Assembly (NCBI GenBank): GCA_041481445.1
Contig: JBGPBV010000016.1
Coordinates: forward strand, 12,432-76,431
Length of the DNA: 64,000 bases
Source of the DNA: Vicinamibacteria bacterium
GTDB lineage: Bacteria > Acidobacteriota > Vicinamibacteria > Fen-336
Direction: 5' to 3'
The stretch's first letter is position 1. Each line of letters opens with the position of its first letter. The position numbers were made by a program, and so were the translations under genes. The notes beneath the pieces were generated by a model. The model saw only the letters and a program-made list of their open reading frames with translations. It was not told the DNA's origin and searched no databases. Below are positions 25,691-45,698 of this stretch, one piece after another.

Positions 25691-26526
25691 GGACCTGTCT
25701 CCCGTCGGCTCGATGTGCTGGATTGCTCGTGGAAGGCCGCTGCTTCCGGAACGGAGAGCTCGACCTCCCTGCGGAGGCGCTCGTCGTCCCCGCATCGGAG
25801 ACCGTGGAGCACGCGACGGGCTTCATCGGTCGCGCGTCCCATGACGGCGAGGACCTGTTCGAGACGCGTGCGGTCCGGCGAGCCCTCGGGCAGGTGATTC
25901 ACGGCCAGATGGAGCTGCATCGACACGCTCAGGAATCCCTGGAGGAGCGTATCGTACAGCTCCTGCGCGATTCTCGCGCGCTCCGCCAGCCGTTCGTCCG
26001 AGCGCGCGTCGAGCTCCCGCGCGAGCTGCCGCAAGCGATAGCGGTGGAGACCGACCGCTCCCAGCACCGCCACCGCGAGGCAAGCGACCCAGAACCACGG
26101 GGCCTTCCACCAAGGCGGCGCGCCGTCCCTGACGGTGAGAGCGGCCACCCCGCCTCCGATCCCGGGGAGGGACGGCGTTCGCGCGAGGGGACGGTACTCC
26201 GCATCGACGAGGAGGGCAGCATACTCCGTTCCGAGGTGCGTCGAGCTCCTCCAGGTGGAGTCGGCCTGGATGGCCGTGAAGGGCTGGTCCGCGAACGGCT
26301 GCACGTACCAGTCTCCGCTCCGGGCATAGAGGACGATCCGTTGCCCGCTGCGCGCGCCCGACACCCGGCCCGCGATGGCTCCGAGGCGGACGGTGCCGCC
26401 CTCGTCCGCCGGGGGCACCTGGCTCAACTTGACGACGGGTCCGGCGGCCATCGCCGGCGGACGCGTCCTCGCAAGGAGGATGACGGCGCAGAGGAGGGCG
26501 ATTGTGCTCGCCCTCGGCCACGTCAT
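25687..26526 (-). CDS. membrane pseudo-sensor: periplasmic domain plus TM plus HisKA_3-like dimerisation domain with His->Tyr, and no ATPase domain
   Basis: ATG at 26526 overlaps the upstream TGA (ATGA). The signal/TM, periplasmic domain and second TM are followed by ERLAERARIAQELYD, where the codon is TAC (Y) at the conserved His. The ORF then ends 50 aa later without a HATPase_c domain. Its stop overlaps the response-regulator ATG. Confidence 0.65.
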   Translation of the reverse strand: MTWPRASTIALLCAVILLARTRPPAMAAGPVVKLSQVPPADEGGTVRLGAIAGRVSGARSGQRIVLYARSGDWYVQPFADQPFTAIQADSTWRSSTHLGTEYAALLVDAEYRPLARTPSLPGIGGGVAALTVRDGAPPWWKAPWFWVACLAVAVLGAVGLHRYRLRQLARELDARSDERLAERARIAQELYDTLLQGFLSVSMQLHLAVNHLPEGSPDRTRLEQVLAVMGRATDEARRVLHGLRCGDDERLRREVELSVPEAAAFHEQSSTSSRRETGP

Positions 26527-28208
26527 TCCTTCAGCACCTGGTGCACGAGGGCGATGGCCGTCGATCCCTCCCCCACCGCCGACGCCACCCGCTTCTGGTT
26601 GCCGCTGCGCACGTCGCCCACGGCGAAGACGCCGGGAAGGCTCGTCTCCAGGAGGTGCGGGGCCCTCGTCAGCGGCCACTCCGCCGTCCGCAGGTCGTCC
26701 GGCGAGAGATCGGGGCCCGTCTTGATGAATCCCTTGTCGTCGCGCGTGACGCAGTCCTCGAGCCAGCGCGTGGTGGGCTCCGCGCCCGTCATCACGAACA
26801 CGTGCCCGACGTCGTTTCGCTCCATCACCATCGTCTGGTTGTCGCGCCAGAGCACGGCCTCCAGACGATCGCCGCCCTCGAGGCTCACGATCTCCGCGCG
26901 TGTCCGGAGCTCGATGTTGGGGCTCTGCTCGATGCGGCGGATCAGGTAGCGCGACATGGTCTCCGCCAGCCCGGCCCCGCGCACGAGCATGGACACGCGC
27001 CGTACGGACGTGGAGAGGAACACGGCGGCCTGCCCCGCCGAGTTCCCGCCCCCCACGACCACCACCTCTTCTCCCTGGCAGAGCTGGGCTTCCATGGGGG
27101 TCGCGCCGTAATACACGCCCGCGCCCTCGAAGCGGGCCAGGTCGGCCACGGCCAGCTTCCGATAGGCAGCGCCGGTGGCGATCACGATGGTCCGCGCGGG
27201 CACCGTCGTCCCGTCCTCCAGCTCGATCGAGTAGGGCTTGCGCGTGCAACGAAGGGCCCGCGCCCCCTTGGCCACCGTCACCTGGGCCCCGAACTTCTGG
27301 GCCTGGCTGTACGCGCGCCCGGCCAGCTCCGCGCCCGAGATGCCCATGGGGAAGCCGAGGTAGTTCTCGATCCGAGAGCTCGAGCCCGCTTGCCCTCCGG
27401 GGGCCGTGGATTCGAGGACGAGGACGTCGAGACCTTCGGACGCGCCGTACACGGCCGCGGCCAGACCCGCCGGCCCCGCCCCCACGATGACGGTGTCGCG
27501 CACGTGGGCGTGGTCGATGGGCGCGTTGAGGCCGAGGCAGTCCGCGATCTGCTGGTTGGTCGGGTTGCGGAGGACGGTGCGGCCGCCGCAGATGAGCACG
27601 GGCACGTCCCCGACGCCGATGTGGAAGCGATCGAGGAACTCCTGCGCCTCCGCGTCCTGCTCGAGGTCGATGTACGAGATCGGATGCCCGTTGCGGGTGA
27701 GGAATTCCTTGATGCGGAGGGTGCCCGCGGAATGGCGCGAGCCCAGGAGGACCACGTCCGCGGAGCCGCGGGCGATCAGCTCCAGCCGGCGCAGGATGAA
27801 GGCCCGCATGAGAAGGTCGCTCAGCTCGCTGTCCGTCTGCACCAGCGCCATGAGCTGGGGGCGGTCCACCTCGATGACTTCCCCGCTCTCGCGCGCGCGC
27901 GTCCTGGCCAGACCGCGCCGGCCGGAGAGGATGGCCATCTCCCCCGTGAACGACCCGACTCCGTGCACCACGATGATCTCTTCGGCGTCGCCGACGCCCC
28001 TCACCGTCTCGACGCTGCCGGCGGTGATCACGAAGATCCGCGCGCTGTCGCCCTGCCCGAGAAGGATCTCGCCCGCCTCCACCCGCCGCACCCGCCCGTG
28101 CGCGGCCACCCGCGCGATCTGCGCCGGGGTCAGCCGGGGAAAGACGTGCTCGAGGGGAGAGTTGAGCCGGAGCGTCGTGGTGGCGCCGGCGGTCAGGGCG
28201 CTGGTCAT
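26523..28208 (-). CDS. cyclic-nucleotide-binding domain protein fused to degenerate glutaredoxin-like and thioredoxin-reductase-like (FAD/NAD(P)-binding) domains
   Basis: cNMP-binding beta-roll (GEILLGQGD...FTGEMAIL). Glutaredoxin-like segment with GSRHSAG in place of CPYC. TrxR-like fold (IVGAGPAGLAAAVY, VVVVGGGNSAG, GVFAVGD) where GATPMEAQLC replaces the CATC redox disulfide. Confidence 0.8.
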   Translation of the reverse strand: MTSALTAGATTTLRLNSPLEHVFPRLTPAQIARVAAHGRVRRVEAGEILLGQGDSARIFVITAGSVETVRGVGDAEEIIVVHGVGSFTGEMAILSGRRGLARTRARESGEVIEVDRPQLMALVQTDSELSDLLMRAFILRRLELIARGSADVVLLGSRHSAGTLRIKEFLTRNGHPISYIDLEQDAEAQEFLDRFHIGVGDVPVLICGGRTVLRNPTNQQIADCLGLNAPIDHAHVRDTVIVGAGPAGLAAAVYGASEGLDVLVLESTAPGGQAGSSSRIENYLGFPMGISGAELAGRAYSQAQKFGAQVTVAKGARALRCTRKPYSIELEDGTTVPARTIVIATGAAYRKLAVADLARFEGAGVYYGATPMEAQLCQGEEVVVVGGGNSAGQAAVFLSTSVRRVSMLVRGAGLAETMSRYLIRRIEQSPNIELRTRAEIVSLEGGDRLEAVLWRDNQTMVMERNDVGHVFVMTGAEPTTRWLEDCVTRDDKGFIKTGPDLSPDDLRTAEWPLTRAPHLLETSLPGVFAVGDVRSGNQKRVASAVGEGSTAIALVHQVLKE

Positions 28209-29131
28209 GGAGCGGGTGACGCGGAGGCGTCGTCGAGGAATGCCGTCAGCTCCGGGATCACCTTGGCCGGCGCCTCGTCGATGAGCCAGTGTCCGGACCC
28301 CGGAACGATGACGCCCTTGACGTTGGTCGCGGCCAGGCGTGTCTGGTCGATGAGCCCCTGTCCGGAGGCCTTCTCACCGGTCAGGACGAGGACCGGCATC
28401 GTGAGCGGCGTGCGAGCGAGTTGCGCGAAGTCCTGGGCGTCCTTCTCGAAGTTGCGGAAGTACTCGAAGCCGGCGCGCACGCCGCCGGGCTGGGCGAAGG
28501 CGGCAGCGTAGAGCCGGCGGTCGGCCTCCGAAACGGAATGGTTGCGGTCCGCGGCGAAGTCGTTCCAGAAGTGCTCGAGGTACGTCCGCTCGCGGCCCGT
28601 GACCAGGGCCAGCGGAGTCTCGCCGTAGAAGTGGAAATGCCAGAGGTCGCGCATCAGCCAGACGCTCTTCCAGTCCCCGATTCCGGGAAGGAAGGCGTCC
28701 ATCAACACGAGGCGGTCGGTGCCCGCCGGGAACTGCGCCGCGTACCCGTAGGCGACCATGAGGCCGATGTCGTGGCCGACCACGCTCACCCGATCGAAGC
28801 CAAGCGAGCGCGTGAGCTCGTGGACGTCCACGGCCATGCTCTTCTTGTCGTATCCGCCTTCCGGCTTGGCGGAGTCGCCGGCTCCCCTCAGGTCCGGCAC
28901 GATCACGGTGTGCCGCTGGGCCAGGAGCGGCATGATCGGCCGCCACATGAGTCCCGTCTGGGCGAACCCGTGCAGGAGGACCACGGCCGGGCCCTTGCCG
29001 CCGATCGAGTAGTGCAGCCGGACCCCGTTCACGTCCGCGAACCGCTCCGAGAATCCGGCGGTGGGCGCCGCCTTGGCGGCCGGCGCCGGTGCGGACGCGA
29101 GGAGGACGGCGACGGCCAGGCTCATGAGCAT
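28205..29131 (-). CDS. secreted alpha/beta hydrolase (epoxide-hydrolase / haloalkane-dehalogenase-like)
   Basis: Signal peptide. LLHGF and GHDIGLMVAYGYA nucleophile motif. The stop overlaps the downstream ATG (ATGA). Confidence 0.8.
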   Translation of the reverse strand: MLMSLAVAVLLASAPAPAAKAAPTAGFSERFADVNGVRLHYSIGGKGPAVVLLHGFAQTGLMWRPIMPLLAQRHTVIVPDLRGAGDSAKPEGGYDKKSMAVDVHELTRSLGFDRVSVVGHDIGLMVAYGYAAQFPAGTDRLVLMDAFLPGIGDWKSVWLMRDLWHFHFYGETPLALVTGRERTYLEHFWNDFAADRNHSVSEADRRLYAAAFAQPGGVRAGFEYFRNFEKDAQDFAQLARTPLTMPVLVLTGEKASGQGLIDQTRLAATNVKGVIVPGSGHWLIDEAPAKVIPELTAFLDDASASPAP

Positions 29132-32348: not shown

Positions 32349-34826
32349 TCATGGCACCGGGCACGGCGTGACGTTCCAGATCTCGGCCGCGTACTCCGCG
32401 ATGGCGCGGTCGGACGAGAACCGGCCCGACCCCGCCACGTTCAGGATGGCCCGGCGCGTCCATTCCTCGGGGGTGGCCCAGAGCGCGGCCAGCCGCCGGT
32501 CGGCCTCCAGGTACGACGCGAGGTCGGCGAGGTGCATGTAGGGCTCGCCGCGGAGGAGGAGGCCGTCGCGCATTGGTGCGAAGAGGCCGCGCTCACCGGG
32601 GCTGAAGTGGTCGGAGGCGATGAGGTCGAGGGCCGCCCGCGTTTCCGGCTCCCGGTCGTAGTGCCAGCGCGGGTCGTACCAGTCGCGGCTGGCCGCGACC
32701 TGCGACGCGGTCAGGCCGAAGAGGAAGAAGTTCTCCTCGCCCGCCTCCTCCGCCATCTCGATGGTGGCGCCGTCGCGGGTGCCGATGGTCAGGGCGCCGT
32801 TCATCATGAACTTCATGTTGCTGGTGCCGCTGGCCTCGTACCCCGCGGTGGAGATCTGGTTGGAGACGTCGGAGGCCGGGATCAGCCGCTCCGCCAGCGA
32901 CACCGAGTAATCGGGGAGGAACACGACCTTGAGCCGGCCGCGCACGGCGGGGTCGCCGTCGATGGTGGCGGCCAGGTTGTTGATGAACTTGATGTTGAGT
33001 TTCGCGGTGTGATACGCGGGCGCCGCCTTGCCCCCGAAGAGGAACGTCCGCGGGGCCATCTCTCGATTCGGTTCCTCTCGCAGGCGGTTGTAGAGGACGA
33101 CGATGCGCAGCGCGTTGAGGAGCTGCCGCTTGTATTCGTGGATGCGCTTGACGTGGCAGTCGAAGACCGAGTCCGGGTCCACCTTCAGTCCGTGCTGCGA
33201 GGTGAGCCAGCCCGCGAAGCGCGCCTTCGCTTCGCGCTTGGCGCGGCGGAAGTCCTCCCGGAAGCCGGGGTCGTCGGCCAGGGGCGAGAGCTTGCGCAGC
33301 TCGCCCAGCTCGGTCGTCCAGCCCTCGCCGATGGCGCCGGTTATGGCGCGAGAGAGGGCCGGGTTGGCCAGCCGCAGCCAGCGCCGCGGCGTGACGCCGT
33401 TGGTCTTGTTGCCGAAGCGCTCGGGGAACATCTCGGCCAGGTCGCGGACGGTCGTCGTGCGCAGGAGGGTGGAGTGGATCGCGGCCACGCCGTTGGTGCT
33501 GTGCGAGCCCACCACGGCCAGGTTGGCCATGCGGACGTGCTTGCCGGCGCCTTCCTCGACCAGGCTGATCCGGGCCACGCGCCCCTCGTCGCCGGGGAAC
33601 CGAGCCCCCACGTCGTCGAGGAGCCGCCGGTTGATCTCGAAGACGATCTCGAGGTGGCGCGGCAGCATCAACTCGAACCACGCCAGCGGCCATTTCTCGA
33701 GCGCCTCCGGCAGGAGGGTGTGGTTCGTGTAGCCGAGCGTCCGCTTGGTGATGTCCCAGGCGTCGTCCCAACCCAGGCCGGCTTCGTCGAGGAGGATGCG
33801 CATCAGCTCGGGCACGGCCAGGGCCGGATGCGTGTCGTTGAGCTGGATGGCCGCCTTGTCCGGAAGCGCGGCCCAGTCCGCGTTGCCACGCCGGAAACGG
33901 CGCACGAGGTCGCCCAGAGAGCAGGCCACGAGGAAGTACTCCTGCAGGAAGCGCAGGCCCCTTCCCTGGGTGGTGGAATCGTCGGGATAGAGCACACGCG
34001 TGAGCGACTCGGCGGTGAGCGTCTCCGCCAGCGCCCCCACGAAGTCGCCGCGGCTGAATTGCTGGAAGTCGAAGTAGTCGGGGGTCCCCGCCATCCACAG
34101 CCGGAGCGTGTTGATGTTCTTTCCTCCGTAACCGACGACGGGGCGGTCGTAGGGGATCCCGAGCAGCGTCGACGGCCGGCCCACGATGGGGCGGAGCTCG
34201 CCCGCGCGCAGCTCGAACGAGCAGCCCAGCCGCACCTCGACCGCTTCCTCCGGCCGCACCACGCCCCAGGGGTCCGGCCGGCGCAGCCAGTTGTCCGGCT
34301 GCTCGAGCTGCCAGCCGTCGCGGATCGTCTGCTTGAAGATCCCGTACTGGTAGCAGAGGCCGTAGCCGATGGCCGGGAGCTGCCGGGTGGCCATCGATTC
34401 CATGTAGCACGCGGCCAGCCGGCCCAATCCGCCGTTGCCCAGCCCGGCGTCCGGCTCCTCCTCGAGCAGCGCCGTCCAGTCGAGCTTCCTCTCGGAGACC
34501 GCCTCGCCGATGACGGGATCGAGGAGGAGGTTCTGCACGTTGTGGGCGAGGGAGCGCCCGATGAGGTACTCCATCGAGAGGTAGTAGATGCGCTTGGCGT
34601 TCGCGAGCTCGTAGGTCTTCTCCGTGCGCACCCAGCGCTGGGACAGGATGTCACGCACCGAGCGGGCGAAGGCCTCGAAGCGCTGGCGAGGGTCCGCCGT
34701 GGCCGGATCGATCACGTCGTCGAAGAGGAGGTGGCGCTCGTAGAGCGCGTGGTCGGCCCCCGTGAGCGCCACCGGGCCGCATCCGTAGCGCTCGGCGAGG
34801 TCGGGGGCGGGCCTGACGCCGCTCAC
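32349..34826 (-). CDS. glgP: glycogen/maltodextrin phosphorylase (GT35)
   Basis: About 825 aa. PLP-site region [28 protein letters not shown] and many family blocks. GTG start at 34826 overlaps the zwf stop (GTGA). The upstream part of the ORF is artefact. Confidence 0.9.
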
Positions 34827-36178
34827 GACGCCACCGCGGGATCCTGCCAGCCTCCGGGCGGCGTCACGCTGGGTGAGGTGGGGCCCCAGGTGCCCGGGTC
34901 GTATTCGGTGGGAGCCGTCGTGGGCCTCAGCACCGGCTCGACGATGCGCCACGCCTCCTCGACGTAGTCCTCTCGCGCGAAGAAGGTGGCGTCTCCCGCC
35001 AGCGCGTCCCCGAGCAACCGCTCGTAGGCGTCCATCTCTTCCGGACCCGGGTGGTGGCTGGCCAGCATCTCCACGACCTCGCTCCCGCCTTCCTGCCCCG
35101 AAGGGATCGCGTTGGCACCGATCGCGATCGTGATGTCGGGGCTGATGCGCATCCGGCAGTAGTTCGCCTTCAGGGGGAAGTCCGCGAACATCGTCGGGGG
35201 CTGCCGCCAGCGGACGACGATCTCCGTGCAGGTCACGGGAAGGCACTTGCCGGCACGGAGGTAGATCGGGACGCCCTTCCATCGCCAGGAGTCGACCTCG
35301 AGCCGCAGGGCCGAGAACGTCTCGACCCGGGAATCACTGGCCACGCCCGGCTCGGAGCGATACCCGCGGAACTGGCCGCGCACGACTCGCGCCGGATCGA
35401 GAGGAGGGACGCCCTTGAGCAGCCGCACCTTCTCGTCCCGGATCGACTCGCTGTCCGTCCGGATCGGCGGGTCCATGGTGAGGTTGGTAAGGAGCTGGAA
35501 GAGGTGGTTCTCCACGACGTCGCGGATGGCGCCGGCCTCCTCGTAGAAGACGCCCCGCCCCTGCACGCCGAAGCTCTCCGCCATCGTGACCTGCACGCTC
35601 TCGACGTGGCCGCGGTTCCAGACCGGCTCCAGGAACGCGTTCGCGAAGCGGAAGAAGAGCATGTTCTGGACCGGCGCCTTGCCCAGGTAGTGGTCGATGC
35701 GGAAGATCGACTTCTCGGGGAAGCAGCGGAGCAGGATGGCGTTGAGCTCTCGCGCCGAGGCCAGGTCGCGGCCGAAGGGCTTCTCGACGATGACGCGGGC
35801 GCCTTCGAGGCAGCCCTTACGGTTGAGCTGATCCACCACGACACCGAACTGTGATGGCGGAATGGCGAGGTAATAGGCGGGACGCTGCGCGGAGCCGAGC
35901 TGCCGGCGAATGGCCTGGAACGTGGCGGGGTCTCCGTAGTCGCCGCGGACGTAGCGGAGGAGTCGGGACAGCTTCTCGAACGCGGCCGGATCGACGCCGC
36001 CGTGCCTCACCAGGCTCTCCCGAAACCTGGGCTGGAACTCTTCGACCGGCCGCCGGCCGATGCCGATGACCGGCACGTCGAGGCGGCCCCGCTTCACCAT
36101 CGCCTGCAGCGCCGGGAAGATCTTCTTGTAGGCGAGATCCCCGGTCGCGCCGAAGAAGACGAGCGCGTCGGACTTCAC
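34823..36178 (-). CDS. zwf: glucose-6-phosphate 1-dehydrogenase
   Basis: NADP site [15 protein letters not shown] signature and EKPFGRD motif. Confidence 0.9.
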
Positions 36179-36834
36179 CGCGCTCCCCCGCCGCGCTCGG
36201 AGATGCCGATCGTCACCCGGATGGGATCGACGGTCGAAACCGTGGTCATCACCGACTGCGTGTTGACGAGGTCACCCACCTGCGTGCGGGCGATCCCCAC
36301 GATGCCCTCGATGGGCGAGGTCGCCCTCGTCCAGCCGAGGTTGAGCGCGGACTGGTCGACCGCCGCCCGCGCCGCCGCCAGCCCTCCGCGCGCGTCTTGC
36401 TCGGCCGCCACCGCGTTGTCGAGCTCCTGCTGGCTGATCGCCCGCTGGGCGGCCAGCGGAGTGAAACGCTCGACGTCCCGCCTGGCTTTCGAGAGCTGCG
36501 CCTCCGCGCGGGCCAGGGTGCCGCGCGCCTGCTCCAGGGCGGCCCGGAACTGGCGGGGGTCGATCTCGAACAGGGGATCGTCGCGACGGACGAATTGCCC
36601 CTCCTTGTAGAACTCCCGGAGGAGGTACCCCTCGACCTTGGGCCGGATGTCCGCGTTCACGGACCCGTCGAGGGTGCCGATCCACTCCCCCACCACGGGC
36701 ACGTCCATCTGCGCGACGGGTACGACCAGGACGTCGACGGGACGAGGGGCGGGCGCGGGCTTCCGCGCGCAGGCGGAGGCGAGCAGGAATGGCATCAGCA
36801 CCGGCGCGAGACCGCGGCCGAGGAGGGATCTCAC
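36175..36834 (-). CDS. truncated efflux-transporter periplasmic adaptor (MFP/HlyD-family) lipoprotein
   Basis: GTG start at 36834 gives a lipoprotein signal ([22 protein letters not shown]). Coiled-coil and lipoyl MFP region. Ends after about 219 aa inside the beta-barrel domain. The stop overlaps the zwf ATG (ATGA). Confidence 0.55.
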
Positions 36835-36836
36835 GC

Positions 36837-37088
36837 CTACTGCTCGTAATTCTCGACGACCTTCGGCGGTCGCACGCGGGCCTCGCCCGGATCGCGGCCG
36901 GCGTCGCGGAGCGCCTGGCGCTGGCGCAACAGGTCCCAGCATTGATCCAGCTCGACCTTGATCTCGTGCAGGCGGGCGCGGTCCCCGTCGTCGAGCGATC
37001 CCTGCCCGTAGAGCCGGTGCTCGTCGGCGACGAGCCGTTCGATGCGCCCCCGCACGGGCTCGTCCGTCTTGCCCTCGGGCATGGTCAT
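36837..37088 (-). CDS. DUF2630-family small protein
   Basis: 83 aa. EHRLYGQGSLDDGDRARLHEIKVELDQCWDLLRQRQALRDAG matches the DUF2630 family as I recall it. Confidence 0.65.
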   Translation of the reverse strand: MTMPEGKTDEPVRGRIERLVADEHRLYGQGSLDDGDRARLHEIKVELDQCWDLLRQRQALRDAGRDPGEARVRPPKVVENYEQ

Positions 37089-37612
37089 CGACCTGCCCCG
37101 TCGGCTCCGATCCGTTCCGCACGGAACCGGATCGCGGCGACGATGGCGAGCACGATGAACAACACGAGGACGATGCCCTGGGACACCACGAACGGCGGCT
37201 CCGTCTGCTTCGGGGCCAGCGCCCTGAGCGCGGGAATCTTGAGGAACGACTGCACCACCCCGACGAAGACGTTCAGGTAGAGGGCCAGCGCGGCGCCGAC
37301 CACGTAGACGTGACGCCAGGCCCCGTGGAGGCGGAAGGCGTAGCGCGCCGCGATGGCGATGGCAAGCACCACCAGCGAGATGAAGCCGACGATGTGGGAC
37401 GGAAGCAGGTGTTCGAACGGGAACCCGAAGCCAGTGACGCTGGTGGCCACCGTCGTGGCCAGGAACAGGGCGGTCCAGCCCTCGAGCCGCCTGGCGGTGA
37501 CCAGGCCGAACAGGACCACCAGCCCCGATCCGATGCCGACCAGGCTGATCAGCACGTGCACCAACGTGTAGGTCGCGAGCGACATCCCGAACACGGTCTC
37601 CGGCGAGCTCAT
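37085..37612 (-). CDS. small integral membrane protein (4 TM), hypothetical
   Basis: Hydrophobic helices. Its stop overlaps the DUF2630 ATG. Confidence 0.6.
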   Translation of the reverse strand: MSSPETVFGMSLATYTLVHVLISLVGIGSGLVVLFGLVTARRLEGWTALFLATTVATSVTGFGFPFEHLLPSHIVGFISLVVLAIAIAARYAFRLHGAWRHVYVVGAALALYLNVFVGVVQSFLKIPALRALAPKQTEPPFVVSQGIVLVLFIVLAIVAAIRFRAERIGADGAGR

Positions 37613-37866
37613 GGCACTCTCCTCTTCCTCTTCAGTCGGCCCGCACCAGCGGCACGTCCACGACGTGCTCGGACCGGCTGGTCCTGGACTTGCTCATGTC
37701 GACGCCTCCGTGAGAGCGACGGAAGGACACTACGATGGCGCCGGGGCCTCTGACATCACGACAAGGCATGGTTTTCGGCTACCGCTACCGGCGTATCTCG
37801 CAATACCTCGGTCGAGGTACGGAGGCCGATCGACTATCCTCGTACGCTGACTGCCCACGAAAGCCA

Positions 37867-39198
37867 ATGGTCAGGCTCCGCCTTTCCGCCCCGCTCGCCT
37901 TGCTGCTGGTCCTCGCCGCCGCGGCCTGCCGCCGGCATCCCGTGGGAGAGCCGGTGACGGTGGTGCTCCTCGACATCGGCCCGGCCAGGAACCGGGAGTA
38001 CACGGAATGGACGGAGCAGGCGCTGGAGGGCTTCCGCCGCGAGACCGGCGTCGCGGTGAAGCGGCTGCCCGCCCCGGAATCGTCGGACGAGCAGCTCGTC
38101 TTCGAACGGCAGCTCCTAGAGGGGGGCGCGACCACGCCGGACGTTTACATCATCGACGCCATCTGGCCCGGGATGCTGGTCGAGCACTTCCTCGACCTGC
38201 GGCCGCGATTGGGCAGGGAAGCCGCCCGGCACTTCCCCGCCCTCCTCGCCAACAACGTCGTCCAGGGCCGGCTGGTGGCGATGCCGTACCACGCCAACGT
38301 GGGCATCCTCTTCTACCGCACCGACCTGCTGCGCGAATACGGGTACGGCGCACCTCCGCGCACGTGGGCGGAGCTCGAAGGCATGGCGGCGGCGATCCAG
38401 AAGGGGGAGCGCGCGAAGGGCGACGACGGTTTCTGGGGCTACATGTGGCAGGGAGCGCCCTACGAAGGCCTCACCTGCAATGCCCTGGAGTGGCAGGCTT
38501 CGGACGGTGGCGGCCACATCGTCGAAGACGACGGGTCGGTCTCGGTCGACAACCCGCGAACGATCGCGGCGTGGGAGAGAGCGGCCTCCTGGGTCGGCAC
38601 CATCTCCCCGCCGGAGGTCGTCGGCTACCGCGAAGCGGAGGCGGAGGAGGCCTGGCGCGCGGGCCGGGCCGCGTTCATGCGGGCCTGGCCCTCGAACTAC
38701 CGCCCCAGCCAGGACAGCGGCTCGCGCATCCAGGGGCGGTTCGACATCACGTTCGTGCCCGCCGGCGCGCACGGGCACGCCATGGTCCTTGGCGAGAACG
38801 CGCTGGCGGTGTCGCGGTACTCGAAGCACGTCGAGGAGGCGGTGGCCCTGGTGAAGTACCTCTCGAGACGCGACGTGCAGCTCGGGCGGGCGCGCGCGAC
38901 CTCGCTCCCTCCGACCGTCCCCGATCTCTACGACGACCCGGAGGTCCAGAGGGCGAATCCCTACTACACGCCGCTGAAGCAGGTCTTCCTGGGGGGCGCG
39001 GTGTCCCGGCCGTCGTCCGTGACCGGCCACAAGTACGCGGAGGTCTCCCGCGCATACTTCCGCGCCGTCCATTCCGTCCTCACGCGCCAGCAGGAGCCCT
39101 CGGCGGCGGCGGCGGCCCTGGAGCGCGAGCTCGTCTGGATCACCGGATTCCCGGTGGCGAGGCCTCGCCCAGGCCGGAGCGCGCCCGCGACACGCTGA
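37867..39198 (+). CDS. ABC-transporter substrate-binding lipoprotein (family-1 sugar-binding type), orphan
   Basis: ATG at 37867 with lipobox MVRLRLSAPLALLLVLAAAAC. Family-1 SBP features. No adjacent permease or ATPase genes. Confidence 0.75.
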   Translation: MVRLRLSAPLALLLVLAAAACRRHPVGEPVTVVLLDIGPARNREYTEWTEQALEGFRRETGVAVKRLPAPESSDEQLVFERQLLEGGATTPDVYIIDAIWPGMLVEHFLDLRPRLGREAARHFPALLANNVVQGRLVAMPYHANVGILFYRTDLLREYGYGAPPRTWAELEGMAAAIQKGERAKGDDGFWGYMWQGAPYEGLTCNALEWQASDGGGHIVEDDGSVSVDNPRTIAAWERAASWVGTISPPEVVGYREAEAEEAWRAGRAAFMRAWPSNYRPSQDSGSRIQGRFDITFVPAGAHGHAMVLGENALAVSRYSKHVEEAVALVKYLSRRDVQLGRARATSLPPTVPDLYDDPEVQRANPYYTPLKQVFLGGAVSRPSSVTGHKYAEVSRAYFRAVHSVLTRQQEPSAAAAALERELVWITGFPVARPRPGRSAPATR

Positions 39199-39201
39199 CC
39201 C

Positions 39202-39627
39202 TCAGTCTTCGCGCGCCGCCTCCCGCCGCGCCGGGATCGTGATCTCGCGGCGCCCGAACAGCGCGGCGTCGACCGAGATCGCCCCCGGCCCGAGCAGAGC
39301 GATGGCCGCCGCCACGACGACCGGAAGGACGCCCGCCACGCCGGGGCCGAACGTGCTCGGGGTGGGCGACGGCAGCCAGGAAAGGAAGACGCCCGCGCTG
39401 GCCAGGGCGGCCAGCGCGCCCGCCACCGGGGTCAGGAGCCCGACCAGGAGGAAGGCTCCGGTGAGGGCCGAAACCACGCCGATGGCCCACGTCCCTCGCG
39501 CGGAAGCGACCGCGCCGCCGAGGCAGGCCGCGCCGTGGGAGACGAGCACGACGGCCACGCCGAATCGCAACAACAGCAGGCCGATCCCTGGCGATCCGTT
39601 CGGGAACGTCGAGAACAACCTCTGCAA
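39202..39627 (-). CDS. DoxX-family membrane protein
   Basis: 141 aa, 4 TM, DoxX-like. Confidence 0.65.
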   Translation of the reverse strand: MQRLFSTFPNGSPGIGLLLLRFGVAVVLVSHGAACLGGAVASARGTWAIGVVSALTGAFLLVGLLTPVAGALAALASAGVFLSWLPSPTPSTFGPGVAGVLPVVVAAAIALLGPGAISVDAALFGRREITIPARREAARED

Positions 39628-39682
39628 TCGGCTCTCCTCGCCGGCGCCGTCGCCAGCCCGTGCGCGGAGAGGCTACCGAAAG

Positions 39683-42600
39683 TCAGTGCCCCGCGGAATC
39701 CCCAGATCGGGGTATTTGGCGCGTCCACGATCGGGTCAGGGCCCTCAGCCAGCCGGCTGGACCGCGTGAGGACGCGGCCGGAAAGGCCACGTGCCCGGGA
39801 ACCGTGAGCTCCACTTCGGTACCGGCTCCGGGGCGGCTCCACAGCCGCAACCGGCCGCCGATCCTTTCCGACCGCTCGCGCATCCCCGAGAGTCCCCAGT
39901 GGCCGTCGCGCCCCGCGCGGAGGACCTCGGCGTCGATCCCCTTCCCGTCGTCGCGCACGAGGACACGGAGCCGGCGGGCCTCGCGTTCGACTCCGACCTC
40001 GATACGGGTCGCCCCCGAGTGCCGGAACGCGTTGATGAGCGCTTCCCGTCCGATGCGGTAGACCTCGTCGCGGATCATCGGATGCAGGCGGCGGGGCGGC
40101 CCTCCGCCGATCACGCGGAAGGCAACGTCGTCCCTCACTCCGAGCTCGTCCCGGATGCGCGAGAACGACTGCTCGAGATCGTCGAGGCTGCTCTGGGACG
40201 AGCGGAGGCCCCGCACGGCGTTCCGGCCCTCTTCGATGACCCGCTTGATCAGCTCGAGGACCCCGGCCAGGCTTCCCCTCTCGGGCGAGCCTGGCGGCAT
40301 GCGGTCCACCGCCAGGTGGAGCTGCATCGAAGCGCTCAGGAACCCCTGCAGCAGCGTGTCGTGCAGCTCCTGCGCGATGCGCGTCCGCTCGGCCAGCCGC
40401 TCCTCGAACCGGACGTTCAACTGGCGCGTCAAGCGATGGAGCCGCATCCGGTAGAGGCCGAGCAGGATCAGCGCGCCGGCCAGCGCGCTCGTCAAGCGAA
40501 ACCATCGCGTCTGCCAGACCACGGGTTCGATGTCGAATCCGAGCGCGGCCTCGGCGCCGTTCCAGAAGCCCTCGCTGTTCGAGGCCATGACTCGGAACTG
40601 GTAGGCGCCGGGCGCGAGGTTGGTGTACACGGCCTCCCGCGCGGAGAAGGGCTCGCTCCAGCCGCGATCGAATCCGTCGAGCCGATAGCGGAATCGGATC
40701 TCGTCCGGGGCGCCCAGGCTGACTCCGGAATAGCCGAGGGTGACGCGCCGCGATCCCGCGGGTATCGCGTGCGTCCCCTCCAGATCGATGAGGTTGCCGT
40801 CGGCGGACAGGGCCTCGATGCGGGCCACGACGGGAGCCGCGCTGCTGGTGGCGCGCACGGGATCGACGACGGAGAGGCCGCGGCTCATCGAGAACCAGAT
40901 CCGGCCGAACAGGTCGGCCACCACCGACCGGTGCCGGCGGGCGACCTCCGTGCTGTACAGGCCATCGGAGGGGCCGTACTCCGCCACTTCCGCGCGTCCC
41001 GGGGAGGGGTCGAGGAGCTGGTCACGCCGGGCCCGCAGCACCCGCGTCGAGGTGGCGATCCAGAGCCATCCCTGGCGGTCCTCCGCCAGCCCGAAGATCG
41101 GCTCGTGGAGCGACCCTGGCACGCCGCCCGGCACCCGGATCCCTTCCGGACCGAGCCGCGCGAGCCCGTCACCGGTCCCTATCCAGAGGCCGCCCGCGGA
41201 GTCCTCCAGGAGGCAGCTCACGTCGTCGGACGGCAATCCGTCGCGGGTCGTGAAATATCGCCAGTGACCCTTCGAGAGCGCGCCGAGGCCGCTCGGCGTG
41301 GCGAACCACGTCGTGCCGTCGGCGGTGTCCACGATCGACACGACGGTGTTGGAGACGAGGCCACTCTCGGAGTCGTAGGTCGTGAACCGGCCATCCCGGA
41401 AGCGGCTGGCGCCGCTCTCGAGCGTTCCTGCCCAGACGGTGCCGTCGCGGCTCTCGTGGACGGCGTACACCGTGTCGTCGACGAGGCCGTCCGCGGTCCG
41501 GTACGTCCGAGCCACGACGGCGCCGCCCCTGGTGACCAGGCGCGTCAGCCCGCCCGCTTTCCGGCCGACCCAGAGACCGTCCTTGCCGCCCGCGAGCGAG
41601 TAGACCACGTCCCCCGGTAGCCCGTCCGCGGTGACCTTGCCCACCCGCCCGTTGTGGAGCCAGAAGAGCCCGCCGCCCAGGGGCGCGAACCACGTGCGTC
41701 CCTCGGCGTCGACGTGGATCGGCCCGCTGCTCTCCGACGGCAGCCCTTCGGCGGGCCCGTAGGTGGTGAAGCTGGTGTCGCGGAGGCGCTCGAGGCCACG
41801 GGGAGTGCCGACCCACAGGCTCCCTTCGCGGTCTTCGAAGAGGGCGGTCACCGCGACACGGGCCGCCGGATCCTCGAAGCGGGAGACGCCGCGCGCGTTC
41901 ACGCGCAGCAGGCCCTCGGCGGTGCCGATCCAGACGTTCGACTCGCGATCCACCGTCATCGTCGACGCCACCACCCGTCGCAGACCAGGGGCGAGCCCGT
42001 CCGCGCTGATCCCGCTTCCGTTCCAGCGCACCATGCCTTTCGGCGTGGCCACCCACACGTCTCGGGCGCCCACGGCGAGCACGGCGCTGATGGTCCGATC
42101 GGGAAGTCCCTGCCTCACCGCGATGACCTGTCCCTGGACGGCACAGAAGAGGCCTTCGCCCTGCGTTCCCATCCAGATGCGGCCGTCCCCCGCTTCCGTC
42201 ATCGAGGTCACGGGAGACCGCGCGGGCAGGGAGGCGCGTGGGGCGAGGCTCTCCACGCGCTCCCCACTCCAGCGCAGGGGGCCGTTCACGATGCCGGCCA
42301 TCATCATGGTGCCGTCGGGAGCGCGCGCCATCGCGGTGATCGCATCCTCCATCGTCTCCAGGGAGGGCACGCTCTCGAACCGGCGGTCGCGATAGCGCAG
42401 GACCCGGGGCCCGCCGAGCCTGACCCACATGGTGCCGCGCCCGTCCACGGTCAGCCCCAGGACCTGGGTGATCGACGGCGACGCGGAGCCCGGCTCCGGA
42501 AAGCGGCGGAAGGCCGAGCCGTCGAAGCGGTACAGTCCCCGGTCGGTTCCGAGCCAGAGGTATCCGTCCGCGGTCTGGCTGATGGCCTGGACGGTTCCCC

Positions 42601-42754
42601 CCGGGAATCCGCGGTCGGCGCCCCAGCGTTCCCGCACGTACTGGGACATCGTCCGGTCGGGGTCGATGGCCTGGGCGGTGCCGGCGAGGCACGTCACCGC
42701 CACCGCGGCCCAGAGCCCAACCCGTCGACGCGCCGCGCCACCTCCGAGCCTCAC
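39683..42754 (-). CDS. sensor histidine kinase with periplasmic two-component-regulator beta-propeller (Y_Y_Y-type) domain, HisKA_3 and HATPase_c
   Basis: GTG start at 42754 overlaps the upstream TGA (GTGA). Signal peptide and repeated propeller blades (DG.LW.GT..GL.R). TM followed by ERLAERTRIAQELHDTLLQG (H-box), then N-box, G1 and G2 (DDGKGID, GLSGMRER). Confidence 0.8.
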   Translation of the reverse strand: MRLGGGAARRRVGLWAAVAVTCLAGTAQAIDPDRTMSQYVRERWGADRGFPGGTVQAISQTADGYLWLGTDRGLYRFDGSAFRRFPEPGSASPSITQVLGLTVDGRGTMWVRLGGPRVLRYRDRRFESVPSLETMEDAITAMARAPDGTMMMAGIVNGPLRWSGERVESLAPRASLPARSPVTSMTEAGDGRIWMGTQGEGLFCAVQGQVIAVRQGLPDRTISAVLAVGARDVWVATPKGMVRWNGSGISADGLAPGLRRVVASTMTVDRESNVWIGTAEGLLRVNARGVSRFEDPAARVAVTALFEDREGSLWVGTPRGLERLRDTSFTTYGPAEGLPSESSGPIHVDAEGRTWFAPLGGGLFWLHNGRVGKVTADGLPGDVVYSLAGGKDGLWVGRKAGGLTRLVTRGGAVVARTYRTADGLVDDTVYAVHESRDGTVWAGTLESGASRFRDGRFTTYDSESGLVSNTVVSIVDTADGTTWFATPSGLGALSKGHWRYFTTRDGLPSDDVSCLLEDSAGGLWIGTGDGLARLGPEGIRVPGGVPGSLHEPIFGLAEDRQGWLWIATSTRVLRARRDQLLDPSPGRAEVAEYGPSDGLYSTEVARRHRSVVADLFGRIWFSMSRGLSVVDPVRATSSAAPVVARIEALSADGNLIDLEGTHAIPAGSRRVTLGYSGVSLGAPDEIRFRYRLDGFDRGWSEPFSAREAVYTNLAPGAYQFRVMASNSEGFWNGAEAALGFDIEPVVWQTRWFRLTSALAGALILLGLYRMRLHRLTRQLNVRFEERLAERTRIAQELHDTLLQGFLSASMQLHLAVDRMPPGSPERGSLAGVLELIKRVIEEGRNAVRGLRSSQSSLDDLEQSFSRIRDELGVRDDVAFRVIGGGPPRRLHPMIRDEVYRIGREALINAFRHSGATRIEVGVEREARRLRVLVRDDGKGIDAEVLRAGRDGHWGLSGMRERSERIGGRLRLWSRPGAGTEVELTVPGHVAFPAASSRGPAGWLRALTRSWTRQIPRSGDSAGH

Positions 42755-43800
42755 GGGAGGTATTCGAACTTCTCGATCACGACCTCCGTCCCGCGCTCCA
42801 GGGCCCGCGCGCTCCGGCGGAAGACATAGAGGTTCATGCGCACCGTCTCGTTGCCCGGGGAGGGCACGCCCGACGTGAACGTGTGCTCGGCGACCGCCGG
42901 CGCGCGGTTCTCGGGGCCAGCCCCGCGGACGGTCCGGGCCATGAGGCGGCCGGGCTCCCAGCGGAGCCCGTGGGTCAGGACGCCCGGAGGCGCCACGAAG
43001 GGCCAGACGTTCGCGGCGACGTAATAGGGCTGGACCACGTACTGCGCGTTCTTCGCCGCCGGCTCGCCCCACCGGCTGACCTCGATGTCCATCTCGCGAT
43101 GGTTCTCGCTCGCGGCCGGTCCGTCCCAGGTGAACAGGGTCAGTACCACCGCCGGCTCCAGTTGCGACACGTCGCGCACGACGAACCGGTACGAGCCATA
43201 CCCGAGCCGGCGCGTGAGGCGCACTTCTGCGCAGGTCCAGCGCGGCGCCTCTCCCCCGATGCGGAGGTGCATCGCTCCGCTTCCGTCCGTCCAGGCGTTG
43301 GCGGGATCGTAGTCGTTGGTGCCGCCCCGGTCGCTGGGGGCGGCGCGGGCGATCCATTCGTATCCGCTGAACTGGATCGTGTGATGTTGGGCGCGCGCCG
43401 AGGGGTCACCCGGTGCGATCGTGACGGCCACGACGCCGCCGCCGGCAGGCGGCAACGTCTCCGTGGAGAGCGGCGGACGATATCCGGCATCGACGAGGAG
43501 GGCCGCGTACTCCGTCCCCAGGTGGGTGGAGCTCGTCCAGGTCGAGTCGGCACGGACCTCCGTGAACGGCTGCCGGGCCTCCGGCTGGACCCACCACACC
43601 CCGCTCTTGGCGAACAACACGATGCGCTGCCCGCGCTGCGCGCCGACCACGCGGCCTTCGATCACGTCGAGCGTGTCCGGTCCGCCCTTGTCCGCGGGCG
43701 GGATCCTCGTGAATTGGATCGAGGGCCCACCGTCGCCCTGGCGGCCGGCGCAGCCGGTCAGGAGGAGCCACGGTACGACCAGCAGGAGCCTGAGCCTCAC
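42751..43800 (-). CDS. lipoprotein: N-terminal domain of unknown function plus C-terminal GH16-like (concanavalin-type glycoside hydrolase) domain
   Basis: Lipobox LLLTGC. The N-domain is paralogous to the pseudo-sensor's periplasmic domain. The C-terminal domain has a GH16-type E-x-D-x-E catalytic motif (REMDIEVSRWG). Confidence 0.6.
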   Translation of the reverse strand: MRLRLLLVVPWLLLTGCAGRQGDGGPSIQFTRIPPADKGGPDTLDVIEGRVVGAQRGQRIVLFAKSGVWWVQPEARQPFTEVRADSTWTSSTHLGTEYAALLVDAGYRPPLSTETLPPAGGGVVAVTIAPGDPSARAQHHTIQFSGYEWIARAAPSDRGGTNDYDPANAWTDGSGAMHLRIGGEAPRWTCAEVRLTRRLGYGSYRFVVRDVSQLEPAVVLTLFTWDGPAASENHREMDIEVSRWGEPAAKNAQYVVQPYYVAANVWPFVAPPGVLTHGLRWEPGRLMARTVRGAGPENRAPAVAEHTFTSGVPSPGNETVRMNLYVFRRSARALERGTEVVIEKFEYLP

Positions 43801-43996
43801 GGGAAGTGAAGGGTCGATGGAAACTCGAAGCCGCTACAGTACCCCTTCAGCCGTGGGTTTCCAAGACTCTCGCCTCGTCGTGCCTCGCCCGCCGCGCCTC
43901 GCTACCAAGGTATCTCCCGGACATTCAGAGCGACCTCTTCTAGGATTAGCGGACGAACGTCGACGTGAAGGAGCGGCGGGCACGGAGGGCAAGGCG

Positions 43997-44869
43997 GTGA
44001 CGTCCAACAGGGTCAGCAACGATGGCATCCCCGATCACATGCCGCCGTTGCTGCGGCGGCGCCTCGAGCGTGCGGAGGCCTGGGCCGGCAACGAGAAAAC
44101 GGCGGCTCTCGTCGAGATGCCAGGTCTGGTGGCATGGGTGCATTCCGTGCCCAGCGACTCCAGTACGGGTGGCGGCGACGTCCACTACCTGTCCGTCTGC
44201 CCCAGCGGGATCGTCTCCCGGATCGCCCTTGCCGACGTGAGCGGGCACGGACAGGCCGTGATGAGCGTCGGTGAGAAGCTGCGTGAGCTCATGCTCCGAT
44301 ACCTCACGGCGCTGGAACAGGTCGGGCTCATGCGGGATCTGAGTCGAGCGGTCCGGGAAGAACTGGACGGCGTGCACTACGCCACGATGGTAGCGGTCGG
44401 ATGGCATGGCCGCCGCCGCCTGCTCGTCGTGACGAATGCGGGGCACCCCCCGCCGTGTTGGTACCGCGCGGCCCTTGGTGAATGGAGTTGGATTGGAGCG
44501 CGACACGCCAGCGAGCGAGGGCGGACGGTCGGCGTTCCCCTCGGCCTGCTCGCCGACAGCAGCTACGACCGCGCGGTACTCAAGCCCGAGATAGGCGACC
44601 TGGTGGTGCTGTACACGGACGGGGTCTTTGAAGCCTCGAACGAGGCGGGAGACGAGCTGGGTCGCGACGGGCTGATGAGGATCGCGCGCGGGTTGGACGC
44701 GAGCTCGGCCGAGGCTTTCGGAAGCCAGTTGGCGGCCGCGCTGCGCCGCTTCCGCGGACGCGCGGAACCCACCGACGATCAGACGATCATCGTCCTGCAG
44801 AGGGTGGCTCCCGAGACGTCGCCAAGTGGATCCCGGCCTGACCCACGGAAACGGGCCGCGCGGAAATAG
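43997..44869 (+). CDS. PP2C-family (SpoIIE-like) serine/threonine phosphatase, stand-alone
   Basis: A GGAGGG RBS precedes a GTG at 43997; an alternative ATG is at 44039. SpoIIE-like metal-binding motifs ALADVSGHG and YTDGVFEA. Confidence 0.7.
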   Translation: MTSNRVSNDGIPDHMPPLLRRRLERAEAWAGNEKTAALVEMPGLVAWVHSVPSDSSTGGGDVHYLSVCPSGIVSRIALADVSGHGQAVMSVGEKLRELMLRYLTALEQVGLMRDLSRAVREELDGVHYATMVAVGWHGRRRLLVVTNAGHPPPCWYRAALGEWSWIGARHASERGRTVGVPLGLLADSSYDRAVLKPEIGDLVVLYTDGVFEASNEAGDELGRDGLMRIARGLDASSAEAFGSQLAAALRRFRGRAEPTDDQTIIVLQRVAPETSPSGSRPDPRKRAARK

Positions 44870-45026
44870 CTCCCCGCCCCTCCCCCTAACGAGGTATGCG
44901 CAGGCCCCTCCATTGCGTGGGGCGGAAACGACCCGATTGCGTGATGCGCGCGCGGCGGCCGGCCCGCTAGCATCCGGCGTTCGCTGCGCAACCGGACCGC
45001 GCAGGGTTCGAGAGGAGGCAAAGAGC

Positions 45027-45698
45027 ATGACGGCCAGACCCATCGTGTTCGTCGTCGACGCCGACGTCTCCGTGCGTGAGTCCCTGGAGCTGCTGATCGA
45101 CCGCAGTGGCTGGCAGCCGAGGACGTTCGCGTCGGCGCCGGAGTTCCTGGCTCAGGCGCGTGTCCCCGCTCCGAGCTGCATGGTGCTCGACGTCGCTCTC
45201 CCGGGCCTCAGCGGCCTCCACCTGCAGAAGCTCGTCGCCGACCGGACCGACATGCCGATCATCTTCCTCACCGGCTCCGGCGACGTGGCCATGACCGTCC
45301 AGGCCATGAAGGCGGGCGCCGTGGAGTTCCTGACCAAGCCGTTCCGTCCCGACGTGCTCGTTGGCGCCATCCGCGAAGCGCTCGAGCGCAGCTGGCAGGC
45401 ACTGGCGCGGGAGACGGCGCTGAAGTCTCTCCGTGAGTCCTACGCGTCCCTCAGCCGCCGCGAACGGGAAGTGATGGCCCTGGTCGTCGCCGGGCTCCTG
45501 AACAAGCAGGTCGGGGGCGAGCTCGGCATCAGCGAGATCACCGTCAAGGCGCACCGCGGCCAGGTGATGCGGAAGATGCAGGCCGACTCCCTCGCCGCCC
45601 TGGTGAAGATGGCGGCGAGACTCGACCTTCCCGCCGCCTGGCCGGCGGAGCCGGTTCGCCCGGTCGCGGTGACCGCCTATGGCCAGTTGTCCCTGTGA
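45027..45698 (+). CDS. FixJ/LuxR-family response regulator
   Basis: A GAGGAGG RBS precedes the ATG at 45027. REC domain (IVFVVDAD...CMVLDVALPGLSG). LuxR-type HTH (SRREREVMALVVAGLLNKQVGGELGISEITVKAHR). Confidence 0.85.
   Translation: MTARPIVFVVDADVSVRESLELLIDRSGWQPRTFASAPEFLAQARVPAPSCMVLDVALPGLSGLHLQKLVADRTDMPIIFLTGSGDVAMTVQAMKAGAVEFLTKPFRPDVLVGAIREALERSWQALARETALKSLRESYASLSRREREVMALVVAGLLNKQVGGELGISEITVKAHRGQVMRKMQADSLAALVKMAARLDLPAAWPAEPVRPVAVTAYGQLSL

Follow-up and report, generated by a model that had tools for sequence, protein, structure and literature searches.

As set out in the literature on hybrid two-component systems (HTCS), their sensors read oligosaccharides that dedicated enzymes of the envelope release. 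In marine Bacteroidota, the membrane-spanning, one-component beta-glucan regulator BguR controls laminarin utilisation and is associated with beta-glucan loci that contain glycoside hydrolase family 16 (GH16) members (bioRxiv 10.64898/2026.01.10.698779). Here we describe a gene pair with resemblance to these systems in a 64,000-nucleotide (nt) stretch of DNA from a Vicinamibacteria bacterium (contig JBGPBV010000016.1, positions 12,432 to 76,431), hereafter the window, with a G+C content of ~70%; the nearest named homologues of the contig come from Vicinamibacteria. The pair encodes a lipoprotein carrying a GH16-like domain and, directly downstream, a sensor histidine kinase whose periplasmic region is homologous to that of HTCS sensors (Table 1). 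A preliminary description of this DNA, made from the sequence alone, had proposed the two genes as a candidate glycan-sensing pair, and all the open reading frames (ORFs) and sequence features that it gave for them were recovered. We propose that the lipoprotein and the kinase form the input end of a two-component system conserved across Acidobacteriota, with an ancestral operon of lipoprotein, kinase, NarL-type regulator and small membrane protein. The best reading of the pair, to which we assign a probability of roughly one half, is enzyme-coupled glycan sensing that feeds the NarL-type regulator.

Conservation and organisation of the gene pair

Relatives of the lipoprotein were collected with two peptide patterns from one genome per species, a scope that limits the count, yielding 365 species, almost all of them Acidobacteriota (Terriglobia, Blastocatellia/Pyrinomonadaceae, Bryobacterales and Vicinamibacteria). 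Among the best-scoring 80 of these 365 loci, which were fetched with 10-kb flanks, the lipoprotein gene was in every case followed directly, on its own strand, by a kinase orthologue (80/80, from Terriglobia, Blastocatellia, Bryobacterales and Vicinamibacteria), indicating that the gene pair is not a chance pattern and that its two members form a conserved unit. Across the classes that share the pair the proteins are only 52-62% identical, and the kinase orthologues are 43-57% identical to the window kinase where a single alignment spans the whole protein, as it does in most loci. The distance from the lipoprotein stop codon to the first aligned kinase codon has a median of 31 nt. The pair very probably represents an uncharacterised, phylum-wide signalling module in Acidobacteriota.

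The usual operon order is lipoprotein, kinase, NarL-type regulator and small membrane protein, and these four are the only genes widely conserved across the 80 neighbourhoods. Because nothing else in the flanks is widely conserved, the module is self-contained and not part of a polysaccharide utilisation locus (PUL), and the hallmark of such a locus, a SusC/SusD-like TonB-dependent pair together with further carbohydrate-active enzymes (CAZymes), was not found at the module. In the window, the pair is neighboured by genes for an ATP-binding cassette (ABC) solute-binding protein, a SpoIIE phosphatase and oxidoreductases. The small membrane protein was detected in 53 of the 80 loci, mostly just downstream of the operon regulator, and follows the kinase directly in the close relatives at loci L083-L086. 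Its sequence gave only a weak DoxD-like match (E 0.003, below the cut-off), with no family-level match in Pfam or NCBIfam.

In the window the GTG start of the kinase overlaps the TGA stop of the lipoprotein (ccGTGAgg at 42754), and this start is supported by orthologue alignments that begin at kinase residues 5-30. The preliminary description had taken the GTGA overlap, which is indeed present, as a sign of translational coupling. The overlap recurs in the one close relative examined (L083/L084), but the genes lie 20 nt apart in L085/L086, and only 5 of 79 loci would allow an overlap of 4 nt. Counting stop/start overlaps across the 80 loci with a start-codon heuristic proved unreliable, as the TTG candidates at -26 and -17 probably stem from conserved C-terminal FEYLP codons. 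The conserved feature of the pair is tight adjacency, not overlap. An identical 13-mer, TCCCGTGAGGCTC, covers the GTG start of both the lipoprotein gene (43792..43804) and the kinase gene (42746..42758) on the minus strand, so that both proteins start with M-R-L; with at most one mismatch it occurs three times in the window, where shuffled sequence would give 0.29, and it may reflect either a translation-initiation context or a small duplication.

A scan of 38900..45100 gave no sigma-70 promoter-like sites and, on the minus strand, a single terminator-like site (45044..45029), a yield not above that of shuffled sequence, so that the operon boundaries are drawn from spacing and synteny only. 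One further locus, L081, whose lipoprotein is 74% identical to that of the window, was left out as its kinase is in fragments that lack a kinase core, probably because of assembly frameshifts. Some genomes carry two full lipoprotein-kinase-regulator copies, which at L014 are inverted within 11 kb, and L032 and L066 are two module copies on separate contigs of one Terriglobia metagenome-assembled genome.

The lipoprotein and its GH16-like domain

The lipoprotein ORF begins with a GTG codon, and the N-terminus of the protein, MRLRLLLVVPWLLLTGC, contains the lipobox LTG/C. Reading the sequence directly, we found a signal peptide followed by a lipobox of the form [LVI][ASTVI][GAS]C (MRLRLLLVVPWLL-LTG-C17), and the lipobox Cys was present in 193 of 193 homologues with an available N-terminus. 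A Pfam search returned no domain match for the protein, and among more than 3,862 clusters of homologues at 90% identity none has a Pfam domain; nearly all of these clusters are labelled 'hypothetical', with one (Blastocatellia) labelled GH16.

Comparison with known structures placed the C-domain near the GH16 lichenases. Searching the PDB sequences with the lipoprotein by phmmer matched GH16 lichenases only (1mac and 1byh, E 7e-5), and the match was strengthened to E 1.4e-8 when a profile of 22 lipoprotein sequences was used. In the HMMER alignment to the Bacillus GH16 lichenases, EMDIE of the lipoprotein falls on the catalytic EIDIE, and CAEVR..GYGSY falls on CAEYR..GYGLY. When the AlphaFold2 (AF2) model of the lipoprotein was compared with the PDB by Foldseek, the best six matches were all GH16 lichenases (E 5e-6 to 9e-5, probability 1.0), giving the C-domain the jelly-roll (concanavalin-like) fold of GH16 in a model with a predicted local distance difference test (pLDDT) score of 71. 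The residues E236-M-D238-I-E240 form the one-strand E-x-D-x(x)-E motif of this family, and both of its glutamates are almost invariant among the lipoprotein homologues, E236 being conserved in 200 and E240 in 198 of 201. The preliminary description had spoken of a laminarinase-like E-x-D-x-E domain and had made its case depend on a GH16 fold: the fold and the conserved glutamates were borne out, whereas the domain proved to be lichenase-like (ExDxE, no beta-bulge insertion) and falls below the Pfam GH16 model. In NCBIfam the lipoprotein has only a far-sub-threshold BglS/ExoK match (BglS, E 2.7e-6, 27 bits versus a cut-off of 300).

The lipoprotein resembles the GH16 lichenases (1,3-1,4-beta-glucanases; 1mac, 1byh and 1u0a) in its jelly-roll fold, its ExDxE strand and the flanking CAE..GYG..Y and FT(W/Y)..P motifs, at a sequence identity of only ~15-20%; unlike them, it adds an N-terminal immunoglobulin (Ig)-like domain and a lipid anchor, and it misses PF00722. 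We interpret the C-domain as a GH16-like enzyme domain, divergent and unclassified, whose motif (ExDxE, no bulge insertion) is of the lichenase/transglycosylase type and whose activity is predicted.

A full-library hidden Markov model search with the lipoprotein family retrieved 5,201 representatives of 50%-identity clusters at E <=1e-3. Many distant relatives hold the N-domain and the GH16-like unit within large secreted proteins carrying Big, TIG, Calx-beta, CARDB or PPC domains; P0277, P0335, P0356, P0374, P0380 and P0387 are secreted proteins of 600-1650 residues that hold both. The long multi-domain relatives retain ExDxE in 45 of 48 cases, and one distant multi-domain relative reaches a marginal PF00722 score (21.4 bits versus a cut-off of 22). 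Because it also occurs inside large secreted multi-Ig proteins, the unit is not restricted to kinase-linked lipoproteins, and by its sequence it represents a wider, unnamed family of predicted enzymes.

The N-domain, an Ig/fibronectin type III-like beta-sandwich, had no family-level match in Pfam or NCBIfam and is possibly a carbohydrate-binding module. The idea that it might be a diverged copy of the kinase Y_Y_Y domain was rejected, with an hhalign probability of 0.07 and no detectable homology. The same domain is the sole periplasmic domain of short HisKA_3 kinases (see below), and this reuse argues for a signal-binding module in its own right.

The sensor kinase, its probable regulator and a short paralogous sensor

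The kinase has just two hydrophobic segments, at residues 14-30 and 751-767, and therefore ~720 residues are predicted by hydropathy to be extracytoplasmic and the kinase core to be cytoplasmic. The periplasmic exposure and the large Y_Y_Y-type propeller sensor foreseen in the preliminary description were thus both recovered, the latter as Reg_prop and Y_Y_Y domains by Pfam, the arrangement of HTCS sensors. Against PDB sequences, this periplasmic domain matched the Bacteroides HTCS sensors 3v9f and 4a2l at E ~2e-39. On the cytoplasmic side, a dimerisation and histidine phosphotransfer (DHp) domain of the H-DxxxQ type, with His798 in ELHDTLLQ (codon 40361..40363), is followed by HATPase_c, which puts the protein in the HisKA_3 class of NarX, DesK and LiaS. 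Pfam found neither Response_reg nor a helix-turn-helix (HTH) domain in the 1023 residues, so the fusion of kinase, receiver and AraC-type HTH in one polypeptide that characterises HTCS proteins is missing here.

NarL-like regulators are the usual partner class of HisKA_3 kinases. In most loci, the regulator encoded just after the kinase is 70-79% identical to the product of 25061..25690 in the window, with homologues detected in 68 of the 80 loci. This gene encodes the probable cognate regulator of the window kinase and has been displaced from the operon in this lineage. Of the two candidates named earlier, comparative genomics retains this one by orthology; the other, 45027..45698, was rejected, being FixJ-type by NCBIfam and only 28-35% identical to the operon regulators. 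In close relatives whose lipoproteins are 84% and 72% identical to that of the window, the lipoprotein and kinase genes are followed by a gene for a 141/142-residue membrane protein and a convergent ABC solute-binding gene, with no regulator. In L085, the same strand carries two more genes ~4 kb downstream of these, one for an oxidoreductase with a cyclic nucleoside monophosphate (cNMP)-binding domain and one for a short HisKA_3 kinase. The window keeps this order, stretched to 13 kb, as oxidoreductase (28373..26523), short sensor (26526..25687) and regulator (25690..25061), and the oxidoreductase gene may be co-transcribed with the other two.

The short sensor combines the N-domain of the lipoprotein with the DHp domain of the kinase, the duplication that the preliminary description had pointed out. 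It shares 62% identity, over its residues 28-137, with residues 24-133 of the lipoprotein (E 2e-42), and its transmembrane (TM) segment and DHp domain are 46% identical to kinase residues 719-852 over 136 aligned residues (E 4e-32). The phospho-accepting His is replaced by Tyr191 (ELYDTLLQ, codon 25954..25956), and an in-frame deletion of ~117 residues covers the ATPase domain, leaving VELSVPEAAAF as the C-terminus. The nearest relatives, of 396 residues, keep the ATPase domain and already have the Tyr. In a tally of the 120 best homologues, Tyr was found in 45 (35 with the ATPase domain and 10 without) and His in 52 with the ATPase domain and 4 without, the remaining 19 comprising one Gln variant and 18 unmatched by the motif search. 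Short sensors invariably keep the N-domain, TM segment and DxxxQ, the last of which serves NarX and other HisKA_3 kinases as their phosphatase motif (PMC3510030). Together with the tally, this suggests that the short sensors with Tyr form a conserved kinase-dead clade and are not the product of a one-off pseudogene. Judged by its residues, the window short sensor cannot act as a kinase, and we consider it a reasonable inference that it dephosphorylates or modulates the shared regulator.

At ~8 loci, a short kinase with a lipoprotein-type N-domain, TM segment, HisKA_3 and HATPase_c is encoded either between the genes of the big kinase and the regulator or right behind the latter, and this location assigns the short kinases to the same module. 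A homologue 82% identical to the window short sensor is likewise followed by a 209-residue regulator gene with a 4-nt overlap.

The 13-kb gap between the two parts of the module holds carbohydrate-metabolism genes (32349..39198). These include genes for a glycogen/maltodextrin phosphorylase (32349..35333) and a glucose-6-phosphate dehydrogenase (34823..36271), neither of which is conserved beside the module, and for an ABC sugar-type solute-binding protein (37735..39198), the position of which is kept in the close relatives L083-L086. Upstream of the lipoprotein gene and divergent from it lie a SpoIIE/PP2C phosphatase gene (43946..44869, plus strand) and the FixJ-type regulator gene (45027..45698, plus strand). 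In L065 and L071, homologues of the latter (55-56% identity) likewise lie upstream in divergent orientation, in the Pyrinomonadaceae loci L019, L025 and L029 (70% identity) they stand beside short kinases, and L083/L084 have an upstream divergent response-regulator gene of matching domain type. The FixJ-type regulator may thus have a second, looser association with the module.

Table 1. Positions in the window of the lipoprotein-kinase pair, its domains and the associated genes.
Feature	Position	Strand	Details and evidence
Lipoprotein gene, 349 residues	42751..43800	minus	Lipobox signal peptide, Ig-like N-domain and GH16-like C-domain; ORF, sequence, two-domain AF2 model
Signal peptide and lipobox, MRLRLLLVVPWLLLTG/C17	43750..43800	minus	Read from sequence
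N-domain, residues 24-135	43396..43731	minus	Ig/fibronectin type III-like beta-sandwich
GH16-like beta-jelly-roll domain, residues ~140-349	42754..43383	minus	Foldseek against PDB; profile against PDB sequences; NCBIfam BglS sub-threshold
Putative catalytic motif E236-M-D238-I-E240	43081..43095	minus	Aligned on EIDIE of 1mac/1byh
Sensor histidine kinase gene, 1023 residues	39683..42754	minus	ORF, Pfam, synteny
Kinase signal peptide/first TM segment, residues 1-29, ending ..AGTAQA/ID	42668..42754	minus	Hydrophobic residues 14-30
Periplasmic sensor: Reg_prop tandem beta-propellers, then Y_Y_Y (residues 682-742)	40529..42667	minus	Pfam E 3.7e-43 and E 7e-15
TM helix, residues 751-767	40454..40504	minus	Hydropathy peak 1.64
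HisKA_3 dimerisation/phosphotransfer domain, residues 789-854	40193..40390	minus	Pfam E 2.3e-12
HATPase_c catalytic domain, residues 896-986	39797..40069	minus	Pfam E 5.8e-14
Small membrane protein, 141 residues, last gene of the conserved operon	39202..39627	minus	Synteny
cNMP-binding domain fused to pyridine-nucleotide-disulphide oxidoreductase	26523..28373	minus	Overlaps the short sensor start by 4 nt
Degenerate short sensor, 279 residues: lipoprotein-type N-domain, TM, HisKA_3	25687..26526	minus	4-nt overlap with the regulator gene
NarL-type response regulator	25061..25690	minus	Pfam Response_reg and GerE; best NCBIfam match NarL

Readings of the module and comparison with known systems

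Collectively, the sequence features make a glycan-sensing reading of the pair plausible, and a carbohydrate is most likely what the module senses. In the enzyme-coupled model that we favour, the lipoprotein would be tethered in the cell envelope, where its Ig-like N-domain and GH16-like domain would engage a beta-linked glycan, and the product of cleavage or transglycosylation, or the glycan-loaded lipoprotein itself, would be read by the tandem-propeller/Y_Y_Y sensor of the kinase. The kinase would then autophosphorylate on His798 and pass the phosphate to the NarL-type regulator encoded at 25061..25690, leading to altered transcription, while the short sensor, co-transcribed with the regulator in this lineage, would probably modulate or dephosphorylate the regulator through its retained DxxxQ motif. 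Of this picture, the domains, their fold and topology, the conservation of the catalytic residues, the strict synteny and the orthology of the regulator are shown by the data; the enzyme activity, the nature of the glycan, the passage of a ligand to the propeller, the partners in phosphotransfer and the phosphatase role of the short sensor are predicted from sequence, modelled structure and gene order. We favour this model because of the HTCS-like sensor, the related regulator BguR, the invariant glutamates of the lipoprotein and the recruitment of the N-domain as a stand-alone sensor domain. Beta-glucan as the ligand would be a nearest-neighbour guess only, and since the module is not embedded in a PUL, a role in nutrient foraging is no better supported than the sensing of the cell's own envelope or exopolysaccharide.

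Several observations weigh against enzyme-coupled sensing. The full-length AF2 model of the lipoprotein is moderate, at pLDDT 71, with several C-domain loops of low confidence, and the fold matches of the N-domain are generic Ig-like. The Pfam GH16 model PF00722, whose threshold the window lipoprotein does not reach, was matched neither by this protein nor by any of 22 homologues even at E 10. D238 of the motif is kept in 148 of 201 homologues and replaced in 53 (26%). No transporters or other CAZymes are conserved as neighbours in the 80 loci, so that the substrate is not deducible from them, and exceptions to the synteny may occur among the rest of the 365 species, beyond the best 80.

Some of these same observations would suit a lipoprotein that is a non-catalytic accessory or co-sensor, after the manner of NlpE, RcsF or the periplasmic binding proteins that dock on kinases, acting by direct contact and using its GH16-like domain as a lectin or scaffold. 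The two genes are paired strictly and almost exclusively within the operon, about a quarter of the homologues have another residue at the middle Asp, the family stays below the Pfam GH16 threshold, and inactive GH16-like proteins exist, among them Rv0315 (a pseudo beta-1,3-glucanase), which is one of the fold matches of the lipoprotein. However, the near-invariance of both catalytic glutamates is hard to explain without catalysis, and the two-domain unit keeps ExDxE in large secreted multi-Ig proteins, where docking on a kinase is unlikely; we therefore regard a purely non-catalytic role as unlikely. A different possibility, also improbable in our estimate, leaves the lipoprotein active and changes the source of the glycan: the module would monitor or remodel the cell's own envelope glycan or exopolysaccharide, in homeostasis or biofilm formation, with the lipoprotein as an endogenous transglycosylase/hydrolase and the kinase reporting its substrate or product. 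Such a self-directed role would be consistent with the conservation of the module across the phylum, with its having no link to TonB/SusCD-type transporters, other CAZymes or catabolic genes, and with a small membrane protein as the conserved fourth gene; moreover, GH16 transglycosylases likewise have the bulge-free form of ExDxE. Yet exopolysaccharide or cell-wall biosynthesis genes are not conserved near the 80 loci either, and the present data would suit a self and a foreign glycan alike.

It is very hard to credit that the two genes are coincidental neighbours, with an ordinary secreted glycanase sharing a transcript with an unrelated kinase. Adjacency alone is no proof of interaction, but all 80 loci, from classes with the low protein identities given above, preserve the gene order, paralogous kinases of this operon have taken up the lipoprotein N-domain, and the stop and start codons overlap in the window and in one close relative. 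Beyond enzyme-coupled sensing itself, we put forward as a tentative and rather doubtful extension that an Acidobacteriota-wide split kinase/phosphatase circuit acts on one glycan signal, in which the lipid-anchored, divergent GH16-type enzyme would make or present the ligand for the HTCS-like kinase, and a kinase-dead paralogue (His to Tyr, ATPase domain repeatedly lost, DxxxQ kept) with the enzyme's N-domain as its input would serve solely to dephosphorylate the shared NarL-type regulator.

Acidobacteriota rank with the most abundant bacteria of soils, and their signalling has hardly been studied; the four-gene module is present across several of their classes. If the product or complex of the lipoprotein is the ligand of the kinase, the pair would provide a compact and tractable case of enzyme-coupled polysaccharide sensing outside Bacteroidota, and could indicate by what means Acidobacteria in soil recognise beta-glycans of plants or microbes, or the matrix that they make themselves. 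The Tyr-bearing short sensors that keep the phosphatase motif without an ATPase domain would, in turn, represent a natural conversion of a histidine kinase into a phosphatase-only or scaffold partner.

In the literature we found no description of the lipoprotein-kinase pair or of the lipoprotein family. Each part of the system is of a known kind, and it is their combination that we have not found described: a classical HisKA_3 kinase with an HTCS-like sensor, a dedicated lipid-anchored, divergent GH16-like protein of a Pfam-less family, a paralogous sensor sharing the N-domain of that protein, and conservation across Acidobacteriota. The Bacteroides HTCS proteins (BT4663, PDB 4a2l/4a2m, and the 3v9f protein) have a homologous periplasmic Reg_prop tandem-propeller and Y_Y_Y sensor. 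Unlike them, the window kinase consists of HisKA_3 and HATPase_c only on its cytoplasmic side, with no fused receiver or AraC domain and with a separate NarL-type regulator, and it lies outside a SusC/SusD PUL, is paired with one dedicated lipoprotein, a predicted enzyme, and belongs to the phylum Acidobacteriota. BguR shares with the window system a signal peptide, a tandem-propeller sensor, Y_Y_Y, a single TM segment and a GerE/LuxR-type DNA-binding output; in BguR, however, GerE is fused directly to the TM segment with no phosphorelay, inside PULs with many CAZymes, whereas in the window the output would run from a HisKA_3 kinase to a separate NarL-type regulator. With the NarX/NarL-type (HisKA_3/GerE) systems, the window module has in common an H-DxxxQ DHp domain followed by HATPase_c and a regulator whose best NCBIfam match is NarL, but its sensor is a propeller in place of the four-helix periplasmic domain of NarX, and it includes, besides, an accessory lipoprotein and a paralogous sensor with a His-to-Tyr replacement.

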